Shown here: piece after piece, positions 1,403 through 32,728 of the stretch
Position numbering within the stretch: position 1 is the stretch's first letter
Layout of the letters: every line of letters starts with the position of its first letter
Assembly (NCBI GenBank): GCA_000004695.1
Contig: CM000152.2
Coordinates: 5,472,001-5,536,000 of the forward strand
Reading direction: 5' to 3'
DNA: 64,000 nt
Source of the DNA: Dictyostelium discoideum
Lineage: Eukaryota
Notes under the pieces: generated by a model
The model's input: only the letters and a program-made list of their open reading frames with translations
The model's database searches: none
What the model was told of the DNA's origin: nothing
Translations under genes and position numbers: made by a program

Positions 1403-1811
1403 TAGAAATAAAAAAAAAAAAACAAAAAAAAAAAAAAAAAACAAAAAAAAAAACAAATTTTATACCACAATTTTATACTTTAATTTATTAACATTTTTTT
1501 TTTATTTTTTATTTTTTTTATTTTTTGTAGTTTGGTTTTGTGGTTGTTATCATTATTATATTTTTTTTTGTTTTTATTTTTAATTTTTTTTTTTTCCAAC
1601 ATACTAATAATTATTTTCAAATAGAATTAGGTTTTTATAAAATATGAAATGTAAAATAATAATAATTCTTTTGATTAAATATTAGTTGTAATACTAACAA
1701 TACTTTTATTTTTATTTTTTTTTTTATTAAAATTGTAGTTTTTTAGATAAAAATAAAAAATAAAAAAAAAAAATAAAAAAAAAAAAGAAATAAATTTTAA
1801 AAAAAAAAGAA

Positions 1812-2718
1812 ATGTCTTTTAAAACAGTGAAACAAACAGAAGTTAATGTTGGAACCATTAATGTAAATTTAATTGAATTAGGTATTGGAAAAGTGGTTAT
1901 TGATGGAATTGTAACCAATTTTTATAAATCAACAGAAAGATTTGATTTATCATTCTCTGGTATTCCAAAAGTTGTTGCATGTATTAGAAATATTGAACCA
2001 TTTAATCAATTAAATGGTGCTAATAAAATTTGTGGTATAAATAGTAGTAATAATAATAATAATAATAATAATTATCAAATTTCAATAAAATCTAATATTA
2101 GTAATATTACATGTGATGGATTTGATTATGAATGTGAAATTCAGGGAAATAGTACCCATTTTACAGTTGATTATACAGCGGTTTATCATGTAAATTCAAA
2201 TCCAATTTCAAAATATTATAATAGAAAGGTATGTATTAAATCAGTACCATATGGAACTTACTTATCAAATAATAATGGTGTGATTGAAATGAGTGAAAAG
2301 CTACGTAAATATGAGGAATGGTTCATTGAAAGAGCTGCAACTGGTCCAAATTCATTGGATACTGATATCTATATTTTCAGTAAAACATTCAACAAATATT
2401 TAACCTTTAATCCATCAACGAATCAATTATCTCATGGTTCAATTTGTGAAAATAGTATATGGCGTTTAGAAGGTAACACTCAATTAAATCATGAAAAATT
2501 CACTCTATTCTCTGATACTTTTAATCAATATAATTTAAGAGCATTTGCAAATGGTGATACTGAAAATGGACTTTTTTTTAATGGTAATTATTTAAAATTT
2601 TATTTTATTAATTTTAAAATTAATTGTATAAAAAATATAAAATCTAATCTAAATAAAAAAAAAAAAAAAACTAGGTGATCAAGAATCTTTATTTGAAGTT
2701 ATTTTATTGAAACAATAG
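1812..2718 (+). CDS. Secreted/cytosolic lectin-like protein: N-terminal H-type-lectin-like motif plus a beta-trefoil-like C-terminal part
   Basis: ATG at 1812. The motif FSGIPKVVACIRNIE resembles the FxxPxxPPVVxLSIxxLD core of H-type lectins (discoidin C-terminal / Helix agglutinin type). Proposed model is join(1812..2583, 2675..2718) with a GTAATT donor at 2584 and a 91-nt intron ending CTAG, giving the C-terminus ...GLFFNGGDQESLFEVILLKQ-stop. The unspliced reading ends in intron-like junk. Confidence 0.5.
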
Positions 2719-2813
2719 GATTTAGGTATTTTTTTTAAATAAAAAAAAAATAATAATAATAATAAAAGTTAAAGACTAGTTAGTTTTTAATATTTTGATA
2801 AGATTTGACCAAC

Positions 2814-2865
<52 letters not shown>

Positions 2866-2914
2866 CTTTATTTTTTTTTTTAACCTTTTTTTTTTTTTTT
2901 TTTTATTAATAGCA

Positions 2915-4996
<2,082 letters not shown>

Positions 4997-5141: not shown

Positions 5142-5912
5142 ATGGATATTTATATAGTAGATATTTTGTTTTTTAAAATTTGGAGAAATTTATATATTAG
5201 AAATCAAATAATAAATCATTTAGAAATTTTTAGAGAAAATAAAGAAGTTACAATTGATTCAAAAAATGATTTACTAACAAATAAATATAGAGATTATTTT
5301 TTAAAGATAATTTATCAAGGTTCAGAAATTTTATATGATAATGATTTACCAGAATGTGTTGAATTTTTAGAGATTGTAAATGATTTTGAAATTGATAATG
5401 AAAATAAGTTACCATTAATTTCATTAAAAAATCCACCAAGTTCATTGAAAACTCTTCAAATTACAAGTGGTTCAAGAATGAATATGAAATCATACCCACT
5501 GAATTTTTTCCCTGATTCAATTACAACTTTAAAATTTAGTGGAACTGATAATAGACAATTTCTACCACACACTTTTAAATCATCATCCAACATTACAAGT
5601 ATGTCATTTTCATTTTGGTATAATTTTCCATTTGAAATCAATAGTCTACCAAGTGGTATTAAAGAATTAAATTTTTTTAAATTTAGTAAATTCGATCAAG
5701 AATTCAAATTAAATCAAATACCAGAATCTTTAACAACTTTAAAATTACCAATATATTACTCTCATCCAATATCAAAAGAATTCATACAATCATTACCATT
5801 ATTAGAAACTTTGTTATTACCAGAATCATATGATTCTTTAGAATATGAATTTTTAAAATCAATAAAAAATATAAAATATTTTAAACCAATATATCATTTT
5901 ATAAATAAATAA
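5142..5912 (+). CDS. FNIP-repeat protein (Dictyostelium-specific FNIP repeat family)
   Basis: Single 256-aa ORF. It carries repeated LPxxLxxLxF..FNQ.I units, e.g. LPSGIKELNFFKFSKFDQEFKLNQIPESLTTLKL. Confidence 0.6.
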   Translation: MDIYIVDILFFKIWRNLYIRNQIINHLEIFRENKEVTIDSKNDLLTNKYRDYFLKIIYQGSEILYDNDLPECVEFLEIVNDFEIDNENKLPLISLKNPPSSLKTLQITSGSRMNMKSYPLNFFPDSITTLKFSGTDNRQFLPHTFKSSSNITSMSFSFWYNFPFEINSLPSGIKELNFFKFSKFDQEFKLNQIPESLTTLKLPIYYSHPISKEFIQSLPLLETLLLPESYDSLEYEFLKSIKNIKYFKPIYHFINK

Positions 5913-6047
5913 ATAAACAAATAAAAAAAAGTAAAAAAAAAAATAAAAAAAAAATTATATATTACATTTCTTGTATAGAAAATATTTTATTTAGTTAATT
6001 AATTAAAATTTATAAGTTTTTTTAAATATTTTATATTTTTTTTAAAT

Positions 6048-7370
6048 TTAAAATATTGAAATTAATAAAAGAGATAATAATAATAAATAATTTAAAATTA
6101 TTACAGTTGAATTTGAACTTTCATCTGGTGCACCATATGTTAAAGAGTATGCACTATTTTCAGTTGAAATTGAAAAAAGAGATGAATCAACTTGTTCATT
6201 TTTAATTTGAAATGAAAAACTTGAGAAATTACCAGTTAAACTTCCAATTGATTTAATTAATGTATATTTTTTATTATTTTTTGGTTGATAATCTAAACTT
6301 ACTGATAAACTTCCTTTTAATACAGTATTATGAGAAACAATTACTAAAGGAGATCCAACACCAACTGTTTTCATTGTTGTTTGTGGACCTAATAGTAAAG
6401 ACCCTTCGATATTGGTTTGAACATGATCTGATTGAACTAACAATGATGTTCCAGTAATATTTAAATCACCATTAATTGTATTTAATCCTGAAATTGTTAA
6501 TGAACCACCATTTCCATTTAAATTTGAATTAATTGTTGATGATGTTATTGAAAGTTGTGAAGTTGATCCAATTGATAAAGAATTAACACTATTTAATTTT
6601 GTTTTTAAAATTGAAATTTGATAATTTAAATTAATATTTTGGTCAATTGGTGATGTTGATGAGGATGAGGATGAGGATGAGGATGATGAATTTGATGGTT
6701 TTTTACCAAAATTTGAAACATCTAAACCATTTAATGTTAATTTACTTCCACTTTTAAAATTAATACCACTTTCAACTAGACGAATTGAACCAATTGTATT
6801 GTCACCTGAAAAAGTAACAGTTGGTTGATCGGCAAATTGTCCAGTTCCAATAATATTTGATTGAATTATTTGAGTAATTTTTGAATTTGAAACTTCGACA
6901 TTTATTAAACCACCAATAATATTTAAAGTTTTGAAAGTGGATGATGATATGGTTCCACTTGAAGGATTTGGATAACTTTGATATAAAAATGAAACTACTC
7001 CATTACCACTTACATTTGATAAACCAACATTTTGACTATTAATATTTAAATTACCATTAACAATTACATTTGAAATTGTTCCATTCAATAAATTTGAGTT
7101 GAGTACTTTTAGTGTTGAACCAAGTACTACTGAACCAAATGTACTATCCTTAATTACAACCAAATCCACTTCTACCACTGACCTTGATCCAATATTAATT
7201 ACTACATTATCACCAGATTGTGGTAATGCTCCACCAATCCAATTGGTAGCCTTACTCCATTGACATGGTGTTGTTATACAATCAATTTGATCATTGAATA
7301 AAACTTGAGAAGAATTTATTAATTTAAAAATAGAAATTATAATAAAAAGTAATAATAATTTAATATTCAT
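6048..7370 (-). CDS. Signal-peptide plus C-terminal hydrophobic tail (GPI-anchor-like) Ser/Asn-rich beta-helix-like surface protein
   Basis: Single 440-aa exon. The N-terminus MNIKLLLLFIIISIF is a signal peptide. The motif CITTPCQWSKATNWIGGALPQSGDNVVIN is followed by Gly/Asn/Ser-rich repeats, a poly-Ser tract, and a C-terminal GAPDESSNS + LLLLSLLLISIF tail typical of a GPI signal. Confidence 0.6.
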   Translation of the reverse strand: MNIKLLLLFIIISIFKLINSSQVLFNDQIDCITTPCQWSKATNWIGGALPQSGDNVVINIGSRSVVEVDLVVIKDSTFGSVVLGSTLKVLNSNLLNGTISNVIVNGNLNINSQNVGLSNVSGNGVVSFLYQSYPNPSSGTISSSTFKTLNIIGGLINVEVSNSKITQIIQSNIIGTGQFADQPTVTFSGDNTIGSIRLVESGINFKSGSKLTLNGLDVSNFGKKPSNSSSSSSSSSSSTSPIDQNINLNYQISILKTKLNSVNSLSIGSTSQLSITSSTINSNLNGNGGSLTISGLNTINGDLNITGTSLLVQSDHVQTNIEGSLLLGPQTTMKTVGVGSPLVIVSHNTVLKGSLSVSLDYQPKNNKKYTLIKSIGSLTGNFSSFSFQIKNEQVDSSLFSISTENSAYSLTYGAPDESSNSTVIILNYLLLLSLLLISIF

Positions 7371-7467
7371 TTTAATTTTATTTTATTATTTTAAAAAAAA
7401 AAAACTATAGATAAAAAAAAAAAAAAAAAAAAAAGAAGATGGGATAAAATAAAAATCTAAAAATATC

Positions 7468-7498
<31 letters not shown>

Positions 7499-7723
7499 AA
7501 AACATTTGGAATTATTTGAAATCAATCAAAAAACCTTGCACTAAAAATAAATTGGTTCAGTGAAAAAAAAAAAAATCAGTGTGGTTTTTTTTTTTTTTTT
7601 TTCTTGAAGTTTTAAAAAAAAAAAAAATAGTAAAATGTTTACTATTTTTATTTTTATTTTTATTTTTATTTTTATTTTTATTTTTATTTTTATTTTTATT
7701 TTTTTATATAAATGTTTATATAT

Positions 7724-13188: not shown

Positions 13189-14044
13189 TTAGAAACCAAA
13201 GTATCTTGATTTTCTTGGGCAATCTCTATTCCAACCTTCTTGACAAAGTGGAGTGACACCCCATTTGGAACCAGTGCTACATAATGATGGGAAGAAGACG
13301 TCGGTTTCTTCTTGGAGTACACCACCAATGACAACAGTGTTCTTGTTAATACCATAACCTAATTTGAAGATTTCAACAGCATCCATTGGTAATTGGTTGA
13401 AACAACGTTCACAATACATGTTAGAGACATAGGAAGCAAAGATAACTTTATCGAATTTAGCCCACATGATTGCAGCAGAGCACATTGGGCATGGTTCACC
13501 GGTGGTGTACAAGTAATAACCTTCCCAGGTGGTCTTACCATAAAGTTCTGAACAATTTAAAATAGCACGGATCTCACCATGTAAAATTGCAGATGTTTGG
13601 CCAGTATTTACACCAGTACACATTAAAGTACCATTGGAGTGGAAGATGGCAGCACCGAATTTTTGGTTAATTGCTTTGGTTACATCGATTGCAACTCTCA
13701 TATTGGTTTCATGGAAGACTTTATCGGCTGGTGATAAATCTTCAGCTTTAATTAAATCAGCCTAAAATAAATAAATTTTTAAAAAATTAAAAATGTTAAT
13801 AAAAATAAAAAAATAATTTATTTCCAATAGGAAAAAAAAAAAAGTAAACTGTTTTAAAGTAAACTGTATAAAAAAAAAAGTAAACTGTTTAAAAAAAAAA
13901 AAAAGTAAACTGTTTAAAAAAAAAAAAACTTACTGGTGCAACTGGGAAGTATGGAGATTTTGGACAGTTATTGTCACGGTGAGCTAAAGCGGAAGTTGCA
14001 AGAGCAAAGATAACTAAAATGATTGATAATAAGTTTAATCTCAT
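13189..14044 (-). CDS. Secreted CDA-fold zinc deaminase (guanine/cytidine/tRNA-adenosine deaminase superfamily) with a Cys-rich C-terminal tail
   Basis: Model is join(14044..13934, 13761..13189). Exon 1 is a cleavable signal peptide MRLNLLSIILVIFALATSALA followed by HRDNNCPKSPYFPVAP, then a GTAAGT donor. A 172-nt intron contains four copies of aaaagtaaactgttt; the acceptor is ttattttag. Exon 2 carries HGEIRAI...YTTGEPCPMCSAAIMWAKFDKVIFAS (HxE and PCxxC zinc motifs) and the tail ...LCSTGSKWGVTPLCQEGWNRDCPRKSRYFGF. Confidence 0.7.
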
Positions 14045-15366: not shown

Positions 15367-17804
15367 ATGAAAATTAAAAATTTTATTTATTTTTTAATAT
15401 ATTTTATATTTTTATTTAAAGTTATAAATGGACAAAATAAAACATGTAAAATTTCAGTACTTTTATCTGGTGATAAATCAGATCTTGGTTATAATTATAT
15501 GATGAATGAAGCAAGAGTTTTAGCCGAAAGTCAATTACATATGTATCCATTTTCAATTTATTATGAACATTTGGAAGAATCAACTTTAGAAGCTGAACAT
15601 GCTATTCAAGATTCAGTTGATAAAGGTGCAAATTTAATAGTTGTTTCATCAGTAATTCATTTTTCATTGGGTGTAAAATATGCAACAAAGTATAAGGATG
15701 AACCAATTTATTGGATTATTAGAGGTAGTAAATTAGTACCAACTTTACCAAAAGTTGTAATTTTAAATTTTAATTCATTCGAACTTCATTATCTTTTGGG
15801 TTATTATGCTGGTCTTGCAACAAAAACTGGTGTAGTTGGTTTCGTTTCACCAGGTATTGGAATTAATACATTATCATGTGATAATAGTTTTTATATTGGT
15901 GCTAAATATGCTAGATCAAATATTACATTCCTTGACATTCATACTGGTTCATGGTATAATCCAGAAGTTTCTTATAAAGCAGCTCAAAAATTAATTGAAA
16001 ATGGTGCAGATGTAATTGGTATGTCTCAAGACGATATGTCCGTTCAAAAAGCTATTATGGATTCCGGTGGTCTTGGTCTTGGTGTTACTGGTTATCCTGG
16101 TCATTATCAATTTGGTTCAGATGTTGCTTATAGTTATTTAACCAATTGGACAAATCTTTTCATCACTTATGCAAACCACGTTATCAATGATGATTGGCCA
16201 GCATTTGATTCATTTTTTACAAATTTATCAAGAAAAGATGCAATCTTTATGGATGATTTTAGTTTTAGAGTACCAATTGATATTCAAACAAAAACTAAAA
16301 TTGAATTAGAAAATTTAATGAATACTTCATATGCACCATATAAATCTGATCCAATTCTTGAATCAATTGGTTTACAATTTTCTGGTAATTGGATTAATGA
16401 TACTCAATTTAGAGCAAATACTAAAATTTTACCATCATATGGTGATTCAACTGTAATTTATTTTGGTTTATATACAATTCCAATTGAATTTGTAAAGTAT
16501 AATTAATTTTTTATAAAAAAAAAAATAAAAAATAATAATAATAATTTATTAATATATAATTTTTTTTTTTTTTTTAGGTTGATTATCCAGAATCATTAAA
16601 AATTGGTGTTACAGTTGTTTCAGGATTTTGTATATTTTTATGTTTAATTTCAATGATAATTGTTATTAAATTTAAAGAAGCAAAAGTTATTAAATCATCA
16701 AGTCCAATATTTTGTTTATTAATTTTATTTGGTTGTATTGTAATTTTTGTTGGGTGTATAATGTTTGCAAGATCACCAACCGATGGTAGTTGTCGTAGTA
16801 GAGTTTGGTTATTAAGTTTGGGGTATACAATTTTCTTGGGTAATTTAATGGTAAAGAATTGGAGAATTTGGTTATTATTTGATAATCCAAAATTAAAGAA
16901 ACGTGCAATTACAAATTGGAAATTATATCCATGGGTAAGTGGTATTGTTATAATTGATATTGTAATTCTCTCAATTTGGCAAGCATTGGGTGATATTGTA
17001 GCTGAATCTAGAACTGGTATTGACTCATTAACAAAATATGAATATAGAAATGTTTGTGCATCAAGTGATCAAGGTTCAATTGCACTTTATTTGCTATTGG
17101 TATTCCATGGTTTAATTCTATTGGTTGCATGTTTTATTTCATTTAAAATTAAAGTTGTCGATATTGAAGAATTTAATGAATCAAAACCAATTACTACCAG
17201 TGTTTATATTATCACATTTTGTTTATTCATTGTAATTCCAATTATGGTTTCGTCACCAACCGTTACAACTCAAACTACAATCATTTGTATTTGTGCTTTA
17301 ATTACAACAATGTTAAGTATCATTCTATTGTTTGGTACTAAATTCTTTAAAATGATAACAGTTGGTTTAGAACTTGGTCAAACTTTTGTAACAAGTACAA
17401 AATCTTCATCACATTCTCAAAGAACAAAATCTTCCAAATCTTCAAATGGTTCTGGTCCAAAAATTAATGGTTTCGGTGGTAATGTTTTAAATCTTGATGA
17501 TGATTCCGATGAAATATCTTCTGAAAAAGAAAAAAAGAAACCAATTGAATCAAATCCAAAAGATCATATGGCTGTTTTTACAAGTGATGAAGAAACAAGT
17601 AAAGCAAGTAAATTTAGTTCTGAACAATTTAGTAGAGAACAAATAAATGATAATATTATTCTTGAAAATAATAATGATAATGAAGAAAAACAAAAAGATG
17701 AAGAAGAAATAAAAGAAGAAAAACTTTTAGTATCAGAAATTCAAGCAAAGAGATTATCACTTGAACAAAATGGTCAAACTGAAATTGATTCGAATGATGT
17801 TTAA
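15367..17804 (+). CDS. Family C (GABA-B/metabotropic glutamate-like, Grl-type) GPCR with N-terminal Bmp/PnrA-like periplasmic-binding-protein domain
   Basis: Model is join(15367..16491, 16578..17804); the donor is GTAAAG at 16492 (or GTATAA at 16498), the acceptor is poly-T + AG, phase 0. A signal peptide and a Bmp-like PBP1 domain are followed by seven predicted TM helices (KIGVTVVSGFCIFLCLISMII ... ) and an acidic/Ser-rich tail. Confidence 0.7.
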
Positions 17805-28665: not shown

Positions 28666-31600
28666 CTTTTTCCTAAAGTTCTTTTTTGATAAATTAAAAA
28701 AATCAAATTCGAATACATTAAATTCAACCAATTCAACATTAAATAGTAATGAATTAAGTAGTGGTGGAACAATGTCATCATTGGATATTGAATCAATGCT
28801 TAATGATTTACAAAGTGCACCAGATTCAGAATTAGATTTAGAAAAATTAAAAGAAAAACAATTAGAATTAGAAAAGAAATTAGAGAAAGAAGCATTATTA
28901 AATAAACCAACCATTTCAACTGAAACTATTATAACTGAGGGTGTTGAATTAGATGATAATTATGAATTTGATTTCGATTTTAATAATCCAATTACAACTA
29001 ATAATAATAATAATAATAATACAAAAACAACAACCACAACAACAACTACAACAATAACAAATAAAAATTTAAATAAAGTTAATAGTATGAGTTTACCAAC
29101 TAGACCACAAGCACAACAATTTATATCACCAAAACAAACGAATCAAGAAGATTGGTGGAGTAAAACTGGTGTTGATAGTGTTGTTTTGGTAAAGAAATTA
29201 GAAGAGATTATGCCAAAGAATAGTGATCTTTTAAAGATGAATATGGATGGATCGTTGGATTTCTTTTTATTGACAACTGAAGAGGATAAGCAAGGTAGAA
29301 TCATTCTATTTGGTAAAGTTAAATTACAAGCTTCTAAATCAAATAAACCAGGTGGTGGTGGTGGCGCAACTAAACAAACTTCAATCACTGATGAACCAGT
29401 TACAAAAGTACCACTTAAATATGCCTCATGTTGTATTATCATTGAAAAGATGGAGAGAAATGTATTCTTTTTACCAAGAGATTATAAATTGGATCAGGAT
29501 GGTGAATCCACTACAATTCAAGTCACCGATACAATGATTGAGGCAGAATTGAAACAATTGGTTGACAGATCAAAAATTAAAGATTACAAATTGAAAAAGG
29601 TAAAGAGAACAAGTGCATTCGATTATTCTGTACCCCACAAGAACGGTCCGGTAGGTGAACAACATTATGTTTGGAAATTAAGTTACCCATCCAATCAGAT
29701 GGTTTTCCCAAATGATATCAAAGGTTCAACTTTTAGATGCGCCTATGGCATAACATCATCACCTGTCGAGCTTTTCTTGATAAAGAGAAAGATTATGGGT
29801 CCAACTTGGTTAACAGTGTCAGGTATCACATTGAATTTCGATCAAAAGAAATCATTCGCTCGTTATGAAGCCACTGTTAAATCCTTTAAATCCATTAAAC
29901 CAAGTATGTACAAAAATGAACCATCACCACCATTGACCGTAATGAGTATCAGTACCAAATCAGTTATGAAAGGCTCCTCACATGAGGTTGTAATGATTAG
30001 TTCAGTGATTCATGAATCAATATCAGCCGATGGTCCAACAGAGAATCAAGATTCTATCAAGTATATCACTGCCATTCGTCCATTGACAGGTCAAGTTTTC
30101 CCACCAGATTTTCAAAAACCAGGTGCTTCAACTACTAAACAAAATGTTACCATTTGTACCTCTGAAAGAAATCTATTATCATTCTTTTGTGAAACCGTTT
30201 TAAATGCTGATCCAGATGTTTTCGCAGGTCATAATATCATTGGCTATGATATTGAGGTCATTTTAGATAGATTAGAGAAATTAAAAGTTATGGAATGGGC
30301 ATTCATTGGTCGTCTTAAAAGATCAAGTTTCGATAGATTCAATCATATCTCTGGTCGTTTAATTTGTGATTCCTATTTGGTTTGTAAAGAATTTTTACCA
30401 AAAGAAAAGAATTATTCATTAGTTGAATTATCAAAAAATCAATTATCAATTAATAAACCTGAAATTAATTATTTATCAATTGAACCATATTTTGAAACAA
30501 CTAAAAAGTAAATATAAAATTTATAAATTAATAATTAATATATATAGAATATAGAATATTTATTAATAATTTATTATTTTTTTTTTAGATTAAATATTTT
30601 TATTGAAATTAATGAAAATGATTGTTATATTATATTTTTATTAATTTTCAAATTATTAGTATTCCCGTTAACAAAACAATTAACAAATTTAGCAGGTAAT
30701 CAATGGGATAAATCATTAAAATCAAATAGAGCAGAAAGAATTGAATATTTATTATTACATAATTTCCATGAAAAGAAATATTTATTACCAGATAAAATTT
30801 ATCAAAAATCAAGTAGTAGTGGTGGTGGTGGTGGTGCTAAAGATAAAGATAATCATGCAGCATATAGTGGTGGTTTAGTACTTGATCCAAAAATTGATTT
30901 CTATGATCGTTATGTTGTATTATTAGATTTCAATTCATTGTATCCATCAATTATTCAAGAGTATAATGTTTGTTTTACAACTATTAATCGTGTTAAAAGA
31001 GATGATGGTAAATGGGAAGAAGCAATGCCACCACCATCTTCCATTGAAAAAGGTATACTTCCAAAGGTATTACATGGTTTGGTTTCAAAGAGAAGAGAAA
31101 TTAAAAAGAGAATGGAGCAAGAAAAGAATAAAATAATAAAAGCACAATATGATATTCAACAACAAGCCGTTAAGTTAATTGCAAATTCAATGTATGGTTG
31201 CTTAGGTTTCTCTCATAGTAGATTCTATGCATTACCATTGGCAGAGTTGGTCACTAGAAAGGGTAGAGAAAATCTTCAAAAGGGTGCTTCCATCGTTAAT
31301 AAAATGTGCTATGATGTAATCTATGGTGATACTGATTCCCTTATGATCTACACTGGTGTCGGTACTTTCAATGAAGCTGAAACCATTGGTAAAGAAATTC
31401 AAAAGAAAATCAATGACCAATATCGTGGTAGTGTAATGGAAATTGGTTTAGATGGTATTTTCAAACGTTTATTATTATTTAAAAAGAAGAAATATGCTTG
31501 TTTGAAGGAATTCCGTATCGATTCAACCACTACCAAATGTGAGAGAGAAAATAAAGGTATCGATATTGTTCGTAGAGATTATTGTGACCTCACTAAGGAT

Positions 31601-32728
31601 ATAGGTCAATGGGTTTTAAATTTGATTTTAGGTGGTGAAGAAAAGATTGCACTCTTCTCTTTAATTAAGGAATATTTAGAGAGTGTTCAACAACAAATTA
31701 AAGATAACACACTTGCTGTGGAAAAATTCATTATCACTAAGACCCTCTCAAAACAGCCAGAGGAGTATAATGATGCCGATATTCAACCACATGTTCAAGT
31801 TGCACTTCAAATGAGGGCTAAAGGTTTACATGTCCAACCAGGTGAGCAAGTACCTTACATTATCACACATGGCAATTCATCATCAGATATTAAAGAGGAA
31901 TGGCATCATAGAGCAAGAGCTCCTTCAGATGTTGAATCAATTCAAGATGTTGATATCGATTGGTACCTTTCTCAACAGATTTTACCATCCATTCAACGTA
32001 ATACCGGTCCAATCGGTATGGAACCACATGAATTGGCTCAATGGTTAGGTATGACTGGTACAAAATATCAAAAACAATTTGACCATTTACAACAACAATC
32101 TAATCAAGATTTTAAACCACGTTATACTTTATCCACTGAAGATCTTCGTTATAAACAATGTAAATCCTTTAATTTCGAATGCCCATATTGTGGTCAAAAT
32201 AATGAATTCACTGGAATTGTAAAGATTGATTCAGAGGGTAAAAGTGAATCTGGCTTCGATTGCAACCAATGTCATGCTAAAATCCCATTAAAGAAATTAG
32301 CTAATCAATTACAATTAAACATTAGAACTTATTTGAAGCAATATAATGATTGGGATTTACGATGCACCGAATGTGAAAAAGTCTCTAAAAACTATAAAGA
32401 AACCTCTTATCGTTGCGCTAGACCTCAATGTCGTGGTAAAATGATTCAAATTATGACAAGTTCAAAATTGTTTAATCAAATTAGTTTCTTTTCAAAACTA
32501 TTTAGAAATGATCTTTCAAACTCTGATAATACCACTACAATCATTCCAAATGAAGATCAAAATACTCTTAAACAAGCAAAACAAATAATTGATTCTTTTC
32601 TCTCTAAATTTGATCAATATAATGTAAATTTAAATTCACTCTTAACTCCTTCACAAACTTTAGATAGTTTTAATAATTATTTAGCTTCTTCTCGAGCTAG
32701 TATTCAATATCCAATACTTAATAAATAA
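28018..32728 (+). CDS. polA1: DNA polymerase alpha catalytic subunit (family B polymerase)
   Basis: Model is join(28018..28578, 28679..30507, 30589..32728), with introns of 100 and 81 nt (GTAAGT and GTAAAT donors). The N-terminus RPKREKKS...KRARDGEK resembles the Pol alpha N-terminus. Motifs DFNSLYPSII (motif A) and YGDTDS (motif C) are present. The C-terminal zinc module is CPYCGQ...CNQCH and CTECEK...CARPQCRGK. The product is ~1509 aa. Confidence 0.85.

Follow-up and report, generated by a model that had tools for sequence, protein, structure and literature searches.

A predicted secreted zinc deaminase of Dictyostelium discoideum encoded head-to-head with the receptor gene grlF

What might an enzyme of the cytidine deaminase (CDA) fold do outside a eukaryotic cell, and why should its gene be paired with that of a receptor? 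These questions are raised by DDB_G0282171, a gene lying in a 64,000-nucleotide stretch of Dictyostelium discoideum DNA (GenBank assembly GCA_000004695.1, contig CM000152.2, positions 5,472,001 to 5,536,000 of the forward strand; hereafter the window). Its product joins a predicted secretory signal peptide to an intact zinc deaminase core, and it is transcribed divergently from grlF, which codes for a G-protein-coupled receptor (GPCR). On balance, we lean towards the proposal that DDB_G0282171 encodes a secreted zinc-dependent hydrolytic deaminase, which accumulates in the fruiting body and acts on a small extracellular N-heterocycle, inactivating or producing a ligand of the type sensed by GrlF.

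The minus-strand gene has two exons and one intron, and its spliced 227-aa product exactly matches a D. discoideum AX4 protein annotated as hypothetical (XP_640344.1; EAL66365.1; UniProt Q54SW5). The coordinates, the 172-nt intron and the motifs given in an initial annotation of this DNA were all correct. In four homologous loci, namely two of D. purpureum, one of P. violaceum, and one of a D. discoideum paralog (L088, L090, L091 and L092), tblastn alignments start at the first residue of exon 2; hence, the position of the intron is conserved. The gene is expressed, as its protein was detected in a published life-cycle proteome. The N-terminus comprises Met-Arg, a hydrophobic core of about 17 residues (9-residue Kyte-Doolittle maximum 3.5), and the segment TSALA/HR, with the predicted cleavage before the final His-Arg satisfying the -3/-1 rule. 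The secretory signal peptide that the initial annotation placed on a separate first exon is thus upheld as a prediction, and an N-terminal hydrophobic core is found in 28 of 30 family members, the remaining two being fragments.

Further hallmarks of passage through the secretory pathway are conserved across the family. Eight cysteines other than the zinc ligands (C27, C85, C107, C154, C157, C198, C210, and C218) are kept in all 15 dictyostelid homologs, including the three of the Cys-rich tail recognized from the outset (C198, C210, and C218). The sequon N106-C-S/T is likewise present in 15 of 15 and N80-x-T in 14 of 15. The cysteines would probably form four disulfides, with pairings suggested by conservation. 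With the exception of a C85/C107 pair in one bacterial protein considered below, alignment comparison shows these cysteines and the two sequons to be absent from the bacterial relatives. The C-terminus of DDB_G0282171 (...RYFGF) has no endoplasmic-reticulum-retention motif, and the mature protein is predicted to have 206 residues, a mass of 22,974 Da and a pI of 6.5. Taken together, the signal peptide features, the sequons, the even number of non-catalytic cysteines, and the lack of a retention signal have the character expected of a client of the eukaryotic secretory pathway. Moreover, in two homologs, those of D. purpureum and Tieghemostelium lacteum, the C-terminus bears a cellulose-binding module, CBM49, and eight of the 30 family members end in a hydrophobic segment resembling a glycosylphosphatidylinositol (GPI) anchor signal or a transmembrane (TM) region. 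Given the signal peptide, the conserved cysteines and sequons, the CBM49 fusions, and the GPI/TM-like tails, it is well supported from sequence that members of the family act outside the cell, whether as free proteins or attached to the membrane or a cellulose matrix, and that catalysis is extracellular.

The deaminase core is recognized by the Pfam profile dCMP_cyt_deam_1 (PF00383, clan CL0109) with E=1.2e-17 and 64 bits over residues 54-146, which confirms the CDA-type zinc core proposed initially, with HGE at 98-100 and PCPMC at 127-131. This match outranks that of MafB19-deam, the toxin-related profile also named in the initial annotation, which overlaps it more weakly (36.9 bits against a cut-off of 27); Bd3614-deam (PF14439) scores 29.7 bits, under its gathering cut-off of 38.5. 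When solved structures were searched with the single sequence, the top match was the Bacillus subtilis guanine deaminase (bGD; 1.4e-9), followed by TadA and yeast cytosine deaminase; with a profile of 120 sequences the guanine deaminase was retrieved at 1.9e-25 and TadA variants at about 1e-23. The AlphaFold (AF2) model computed from the same 120-sequence alignment has a mean predicted local distance difference test score of 88.4, with values of 95-99 in the core and of 89 falling to 62 in the C-terminal tail. In structural comparisons TadA proteins are the best matches, with scores of 5.7-7.1 for AID/APOBEC structures and of 4.8 and 4.7 for the toxin deaminases SsdA and DddB, respectively. 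The residues H98, E100, C128, and C131, which constitute the HxE and PCxxC zinc motifs of the fold, are invariant in the 120 sequences, with H98 and E100 aligning with H53 and E55 of bGD. Likewise, F72, N89, and W137 are the counterparts of F26, N42, and W92 of bGD, such that the Asn that binds O6 in guanine deaminases (N89) and the pocket Phe (F72) are both present and are again invariant in the 120 sequences. Past the core strand, a single short helix (187-191) is predicted, followed by a Cys-rich coil. The conserved tail, which ends in R-Y-F-G in group-4 and related species, is not homologous to the C-terminal lid or domain-swapped tail of guanine deaminases; the profile alignment with yeast cytosine deaminase spans positions 42-180 only, with no predicted equivalent of helix 6 of that enzyme (Fcy1). 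By its sequence, the protein belongs as an intact zinc deaminase to the small-molecule/tRNA branch of the fold, which holds TadA, the guanine deaminases, and the cytosine deaminases. It is not a clean member of any of these three families and is remote from the toxin and APOBEC clades.

These observations bear on two very different explanations of the protein. One would make it an ordinary intracellular enzyme, either a TadA/ADAT2-like tRNA deaminase or a cytosolic base deaminase, with an N-terminus that is a mis-annotated exon or an organellar presequence. It draws on the TadA proteins being the best structural matches; nevertheless, the gene model agrees with the RefSeq annotation, the intron position and the signal peptide are kept in independently annotated orthologs, and the sequons and the eight extra cysteines are conserved. 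Moreover, the predicted helix 187-191 and Cys-rich coil stand in place of the long RNA-binding C-terminal helix of TadA, and a single Arg followed by a 17-residue hydrophobic core is unlike an amphipathic presequence. Hence, the initial annotation's own alternative of a mitochondrial presequence on a member of an ordinary cytosolic family is not borne out, as the N-terminus is non-amphipathic and there is no clean fit to the cytosolic families; we regard this explanation as close to excluded and the least probable of those considered. The other sees a protein that is delivered to other cells as a toxin or as a mutator of nucleic acids, comparable to the deaminases of polymorphic toxin systems or to the secreted deaminases known as vertebrate SNADs and dictyosteliid AADs, which also combine a signal peptide with disulfide-rich extensions (PMC5889660). 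While the MafB19-deam score above its cut-off speaks for it, the structural distance from SsdA, DddB, and AID/APOBEC proteins and the different architecture speak against it; we reject it on these grounds and consider it, too, close to excluded. The interpretation offered in the initial annotation is thus supported in part: the likeness to toxin deaminases falls away, and of its other suggestion, a salvage or defence enzyme for extracellular nucleosides, the extracellular setting is well supported by the features above.

One position of the active site complicates the resemblance to guanine deaminases. In the hidden Markov model (HMM) alignment, Gln160 aligns with D114 of bGD, albeit in a segment where alignment confidence drops; we take D114 to be the bGD counterpart of E143 of the Nitrosomonas europaea enzyme NE0047. 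Position 160 is Gln in 13 of the 15 dictyostelid homologs and in most bacterial relatives, the two CBM49 forms having Asn instead. A second acidic proton shuttle, E143 in NE0047, has been described as a hallmark of guanine deaminases (PMC9081823). With Gln160 at this position, or Asn where CBM49 is present, the substrate may be a molecule other than guanine. We also observed three family members (P0155, P0156, and P0157) that keep an H-x-E-like motif and have lost both zinc cysteines, with PDSLSS or PDPLAA replacing PCPMC; one of them has a long low-complexity Lys/Asp/Ser-rich tail. Judging from these substitutions, they are probably catalytically dead paralogs.

A search of 1.84 billion representative proteins recovered 15 clusters at E<=1e-30, after which scores fall to 1e-22. 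The named close relatives are all from dictyostelids, and the taxa holding them span the four dictyostelid groups. D. discoideum itself has four paralogs, DDB_G0282171, DDB_G0272030, XP_645425, and DDB_G0272442. A Basidiobolus protein and a single metagenome protein of eukaryote-like character come next, ahead of bacterial proteins that are about 185 aa long and show 33-39% identity. When one genome from each bacterial species was scanned for the motif, at least 579 relatives emerged; most are from Alpha- and Betaproteobacteria, and Streptomyces, cyanobacteria, and Verrucomicrobia are represented as well. The nearest bacterial relatives are from proteobacteria and Streptomyces, and many have twin-arginine (Tat) signals (e.g. 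MWSRRRFGSMLGVV..., MNRRSALICLCGIGLA..., MILGRRRFLETAAGAAL...). Among 79 bacterial relatives that we classified, a presequence with RR plus a hydrophobic stretch occurs in 30 of 64 of the HGE type versus none of the 15 more distant ones of the HAE type. The phylogeny envisaged by the initial annotation, obtained here by neighbor-joining, supports the dictyostelid clade (48 of 50 bootstraps) and no sister group to it (6 of 50 and 14 of 50 only). The simplest reading is that the dictyostelids most probably acquired the gene before their radiation from a bacterial lineage with many exported members. In Dictyostelia the enzyme would then have been adapted to eukaryotic secretion by gaining a Sec signal peptide, probably four disulfides, and two N-glycans.

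Two side observations from the bacterial members may be recorded here. First, a homolog in a metagenome-assembled genome of an uncultured proteobacterium (L017 5812-6399; CAWJON010000002.1; locus GC 38.7%) has a Sec-type rather than a Tat-type signal peptide and possesses the C85/C107 pair otherwise found only in the dictyostelid and Basidiobolus proteins. It groups with the eukaryotes in 14 of 50 bootstraps and could be a member of the donor lineage or the product of a eukaryote-to-bacterium transfer. Second, the gene for a Tat-exported deaminase begins 3 nt past the called end of a gene for a DUF2165 small membrane protein (L001 7510-7998, L002 7510-7998, and L003 131-619); DUF2165 is thus upstream of the deaminase P0034 in these three loci, and P0117 is a fusion of the two domains (PF09933 plus PF00383). 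A literature search found nothing on this association.

The genomic neighborhood of DDB_G0282171 may bear on its role. The grlF product combines a Bmp/PnrA-like ectodomain (PF02608) with a 7tm_3 domain (PF00003), as in class-C GPCRs, and clusters with Q54SW3, 'Metabotropic glutamate receptor-like protein F' (GrlF). In D. purpureum (L092), the deaminase P0009 is head-to-head with a GrlF-like gene at a spacing of about 1.3 kb, and in Cavenderia fasciculata (L089) the deaminase P0010 is head-to-head with P0313 ('GPCR family 3 protein 6') at 2.2 kb. A paralogous pair occurs in D. firmibasis (L093), where the ortholog of DDB_G0272442, through which the pairing of that paralog was read, is head-to-head with an 810-aa GrlF-like gene, also at about 1.3 kb. 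All three pairings were confirmed by tblastn, and in one further EukProt species the deaminase and receptor homologs carry consecutive gene numbers. Among all open reading frames (ORFs) of the first 34 kb of the window, those of the deaminase and grlF alone have matches in the three paired loci, so conserved gene order does not extend beyond these two genes. With about 17 Grl genes in a D. discoideum complement of about 12,500, a given gene has roughly a 0.3% chance of a Grl neighbor. No deeper split is known within Dictyostelia than that between C. fasciculata (group 1) and D. discoideum (group 4). That the pairing outlasted this split, and also a duplication of both genes, argues for selection to keep them together, for which a shared bidirectional promoter would be the simplest basis. 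We further noted that the GrlF-like receptor is tandemly duplicated in the D. purpureum locus (1722-4060 and 5355-7658; 743 and 744 aa). Two unpaired paralogs adjoin, respectively, a gene for a protein with sedolisin-type domains (Pro-kuma_activ plus Peptidase_S8; L091 10068-12435) and a DNase II gene (L090 11509-12609). Both kinds of enzyme are usually secreted or lysosomal hydrolases, and this adjacency may be coincidental.

The GrlF ectodomain in turn offers a hint as to the class of ligand. Its best match among solved structures is AtzT (6PI5; E=1.4e-16), with the Brucella lipoprotein 3S99 and Borrelia BmpD next in rank. Guanine co-purifies with AtzT, whose dissociation constants are 110 nM for guanine, 360 nM for ammeline, and 2.5 uM for adenine, and 3S99 has been modelled with adenine (PMC6834077). 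Mapping through the HMM alignment indicates that the aromatic residues that sandwich the ring in AtzT, Tyr45 and Trp194, as well as Ser97, are kept in GrlF, and across 13 proteins of the GrlF/GrlB subfamily the Tyr45, Trp194, and Ser97 positions are Y (F in one), W, and S. In this subfamily AtzT's polar contacts are consistently altered (Asn218 to Ser, Asn220 to Asp, and Glu165 to N, Q, L, or S). Since the ring-sandwich residues are kept and the polar contacts changed, the pattern fits a GrlF-type ligand that is a planar N-heterocycle other than guanine. The folate receptor, GrlL/fAR1, is likewise a Grl protein (PMC5476428).

The expression data place the protein late in development. In the 2026 life-cycle proteome (PMC12821622, suppl. 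S1), DDB_G0282171 is found in both fruiting-body replicates (4.5e7 and 5.6e7), at a level similar to those of CyrA and PsiA and roughly one-sixth that of the cellulase CelA. It was not detected in the vegetative, aggregation, mound, or culmination samples of that study, where the vegetative result is only partly telling, as washed vegetative cells lose secreted protein. The paralog DDB_G0272030 is first seen at culmination and is higher in fruiting bodies, and DDB_G0272442 is classed as cup-cell-specific (18 transcripts per million (TPM) in cups against 0.4 TPM in vegetative cells). For DDB_G0282171 itself, this timing argues for a late-development substrate.

It is against this background that a long-standing biochemical puzzle has to be weighed, namely whether the family comprises the folate and/or pterin deaminases of the biochemistry of about 1980, by which dictyostelids inactivate these chemoattractants, with DDB_G0282171 a late paralog that acts on a pterin signal of multicellular development. 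We consider this a possible but doubtful identification. Folate deaminase has secreted and cell-surface forms and a reported size of about 40 kDa (PMC4794234), and a 2021 review described it as 'yet to be cloned' (PMC8616412), with no later cloning found in the literature that we searched. The present family includes secreted, GPI/TM-like, and matrix-bound forms, and so offers both kinds of location as a family rather than in this protein alone; the 23.0-kDa mature monomer would give a dimer of 46 kDa. Furthermore, the pterin ring has the 2-amino-4-oxo-pyrimidine of guanine, and the top profile match is a guanine deaminase; the gene is linked to a paralog of the folate receptor GrlL; and a pterin-receptor pathway that acts via G-alpha-4 and is essential for multicellular development is known from the title of Hadwiger et al. 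1994, as cited in PMC2291184. However, the classical activity comes from growing and early-starving cells (PMC5476428), at odds with a protein seen in fruiting bodies only, a paralog (DDB_G0272030) confined to culmination and fruiting bodies, and another (DDB_G0272442) that is cup-enriched with minimal vegetative expression. The fruiting-body-only proteomics led us to downgrade in part the candidacy of DDB_G0282171 as the vegetative folate deaminase. The timing, seen for three of the four paralogs, is not decisive, given the loss of secreted protein from washed vegetative cells. Also, the bacterial pterin deaminases discussed in PMC13197243 belong to the amidohydrolase superfamily, which has another fold.

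Returning to the proposal with which we began, the conserved linkage together with the homologies of the two proteins suggests a module of a receptor and a signal-destroying enzyme. Specifically, the deaminase accumulating in the fruiting body would strip a small, planar N-heterocycle outside the cell of its exocyclic amino group, this substrate being a purine-, pterin-, or related base or nucleoside rather than nucleic acid, and so would inactivate, or alternatively produce, the ligand sensed by the neighboring GrlF-type receptor. The logic would parallel that of the cAMP receptor and its phosphodiesterase, and of the folate receptor GrlL and folate deaminase. More tentatively, as a conjecture with perhaps the same modest chance as the folate deaminase identification, the pair might be an ancient co-inherited module, linked before the split of groups 1 and 4, in which the receptor senses a purine- or pterin-like signal of terminal differentiation that the deaminase shapes or ends; the family would then also include the folate/pterin deaminases of self-generated gradients.

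Several points weigh against the proposal. Gene adjacency may reflect shared regulation only, and five of the nine homologous loci from other genomes or paralogs have no Grl neighbor within 8-9 kb (D. purpureum P0003, P. violaceum, DDB_G0272030, the GPI/TM-type form of Acytostelium, and the CBM49 form of T. lacteum). GrlB, the closest D. discoideum paralog of GrlF, is labelled a receptor for gamma-aminobutyric acid (GABA) in a source annotation, and GABA is not a substrate for the CDA fold. Guanine may not be accepted as a substrate, given the Gln or Asn at the shuttle position. The three bacterial gene contexts that were examined gave no clue to the substrate, with nothing in common except DUF2165. 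Secretion is itself predicted from sequence features, and the proteome samples were whole structures, so that they do not resolve the location of the protein.

Two further explanations dispense with the receptor. In one, the enzyme is catabolic, an extracellular or vacuolar deaminase of the guanine/guanosine type that recycles purines and releases ammonia in terminal differentiation without any part in signaling. Its closest characterized relatives are indeed guanine, guanosine, and cytosine deaminases, and late expression coincides with massive turnover of RNA and protein; moreover, PMC12711200 describes ammonia as a Dictyostelium morphogen, with the breakdown of protein and RNA as one source and a secreted adenosine deaminase that has a different fold as another. 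We nevertheless hold it unlikely, as the second acidic shuttle of guanine deaminases is missing (Q160), and CBM49, the GPI/TM-like anchoring, and the conserved GPCR linkage are hard to explain on its terms. Were it true, the gain would be a modest one of annotation. Less likely still is a detoxifying or defensive enzyme of the spore mass directed at base or nucleoside analogs of soil microbes, such as 8-azaguanine, 5-azacytosine, aminotriazines, or nucleoside antibiotics. There is precedent in the binding of 8-azaguanine by NE0047 and the deamination of 5-azacytosine, isoguanine, and ammeline by Msd (PMC9081823), and a putatively secreted, stable protein accumulating in the long-lived fruiting body would suit such a function, but this leaves the GPCR linkage and the membrane-anchored forms unexplained.

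The base composition of the gene had first suggested either high expression or a bacterial origin. The window has 22% GC overall, and the deaminase coding region, at 39.6% GC and 33.9% GC at third codon positions (GC3), has the highest values of both among the 31 long ORFs of the window (means 26.3+/-4.7% and 13.1+/-5.7%), so its AT content lies below that of the surroundings also when only coding regions are compared. We attribute this to the codon bias of an abundant late protein, in keeping with the first suggestion, and not to foreign origin; GC content as a sign of recent horizontal transfer was rejected, the family being old within Dictyostelia. The intron contains three exact copies of the 11-mer AAACAGTTTAC (13844-13854, 13880-13890, and 13905-13915, minus strand) and, as read by eye, a one-mismatch copy at 13861-13871. 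The whole window holds four exact copies, versus 0.14 expected by chance, and the intronic repeats may be a regulatory element. An ortholog from D. cf. discoideum (P0126, 297 aa) is annotated as 70 residues longer than the 227-aa form of all others, which is probably a gene-model difference. Elsewhere in the window, two large plus-strand ORFs (28772-30511 and 30938-32728) with the exonuclease and polymerase domains of DNA polymerase B and a DNA-polymerase-alpha zinc finger are probably the gene for the DNA polymerase alpha catalytic subunit, split by an intron. The features of the deaminase-grlF region are collected in Table 1.

Table 1. Features of the deaminase gene and its divergent neighbor; positions are those of the window.
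Feature	Position	Strand	Details
Exon 1	14044..13934	-	111 nt, 37 aa, phase 0; start codon, signal peptide, first conserved cysteine C27
Intron	13933..13762	-	172 nt, GTAAGT...TTTTAG, 11.6% GC
Exon 2	13761..13189 incl. stop	-	190 aa + stop; deaminase core, Cys-rich tail
Signal peptide coding region (predicted)	13982..14044	-	Residues 1-21, MRLNLLSIILVIFALATSALA; predicted cleavage ALA/HR; from hydrophobicity profile and -3/-1 rule
CDA-fold zinc deaminase domain	13435..13713	-	Residues 54-146; Pfam PF00383
H98-G99-E100 (zinc ligand His and catalytic Glu)	13573..13581	-	Reverse complement CAT GGT GAG
P127-C128-P129-M130-C131 (two zinc-ligand Cys)	13480..13494	-	Reverse complement CCA TGC CCA ATG TGC
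Cys-rich C-terminal tail	13192..13287	-	Residues 196-227; C198, C210, C218; conserved terminal R-Y-F-G motif
AT-rich intergenic region between divergent deaminase and grlF start codons	14045..15366	.	1,322 bp, ATG to ATG; candidate bidirectional promoter
grlF	15367..17804	+	Exon 1 15367-16491, intron 16492-16577, exon 2 16578-17804; 783 aa

The wider interest of these findings is threefold. First, folate deaminase underlies self-generated folate gradients, a leading model of long-range chemotaxis, and this small, dictyostelid-restricted family offers four D. discoideum candidates for it. Second, no biochemically defined ligand of GrlF or its subfamily was found in the literature searched, and a conserved enzyme partner and an ectodomain like those that bind guanine narrow the search for the GrlF ligand to aminated planar heterocycles. 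Third, the family is an additional case of a predicted secreted eukaryotic deaminase, of which we found no earlier description: the literature searched held no main-text mention of DDB_G0282171 or its paralogs by identifier. It stands as a second, independent instance of such a protein beside the AID/APOBEC-like SNADs, and would exemplify the refitting of a bacterial enzyme lineage for eukaryotic secretion, with Sec replacing Tat and with disulfides and glycans added.

Among known systems, the CDA guanine deaminases (B. subtilis GuaD, PDB 1WKQ/1TIY; N. europaea NE0047) are the nearest, providing the best profile match and sharing the fold, the HxE/PCxxC zinc site, the pocket Phe, Asn, and Trp, a core of about 150 residues and, presumably, a dimeric state. 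DDB_G0282171 differs from them in having Gln160 in place of the shuttle and in its signal peptide, eight extra cysteines, two sequons, and Cys-rich tail, while neither their domain-swapped C-terminus nor the N-terminal sandwich of the NE0047 type is recognizable in it. TadA and ADAT2 are set apart further, as TadA is cytosolic and binds RNA, at the tRNA anticodon arm, through an extended helix at its C-terminus (PMC9081823), unlike the short helix and disulfide-rich coil predicted here, and an extracellular tRNA substrate is implausible. The C-terminal lid helix of Fcy1, which seals a small pocket (W152, D155, and I156), has no recognizable counterpart in the structure predicted for DDB_G0282171, and both Fcy1 and the plant guanosine deaminase GSDA are cytosolic. 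The polymorphic-toxin deaminases (MafB19-like, SsdA, and DddA/DddB) are C-terminal domains of large secreted toxins accompanied by an adjacent immunity gene, an architecture and a toxin-clade fold that DDB_G0282171 does not share.

Closer in circumstance are the secreted AID/APOBEC-like deaminases that Krishnan et al. 2018 reported from three dictyostelids and regarded, together with the SNADs, as the only eukaryotic deaminases to be secreted (PMC5889660). Like the present family, these are eukaryotic proteins with a signal peptide and a disulfide-stabilized deaminase fold, some of them dictyostelid and probably of bacterial origin; however, DDB_G0282171 and its relatives lack the AID/APOBEC synapomorphies, belong to another clade of the fold, and have another species distribution that includes D. 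discoideum. On the latter two grounds we rejected their identity with the dictyosteliid AADs.

The folate/pterin deaminase activity of Dictyostelium has been known since about 1978-81. By analogy, the present family would resemble these enzymes in having secreted and surface forms, in removing a 2-amino group from a guanine-like ring, in a size compatible with a dimer, and in partnership with a Grl-family receptor (GrlL/fAR1 in their case), and it differs in timing, growing and early-starving cells being the source of the classical activity and fruiting bodies the only stage at which the DDB_G0282171 protein was detected. The function of the GrlF/deaminase pair, unlike that of cAR1/PdsA and GrlL/folate deaminase, is deduced from divergent linkage and domain homologies, and to our knowledge pdsA and carA are not adjacent genes. 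The logic proposed here would be that of both of these pairs, in which a GPCR for a small molecule is matched with a secreted or surface enzyme that degrades it.

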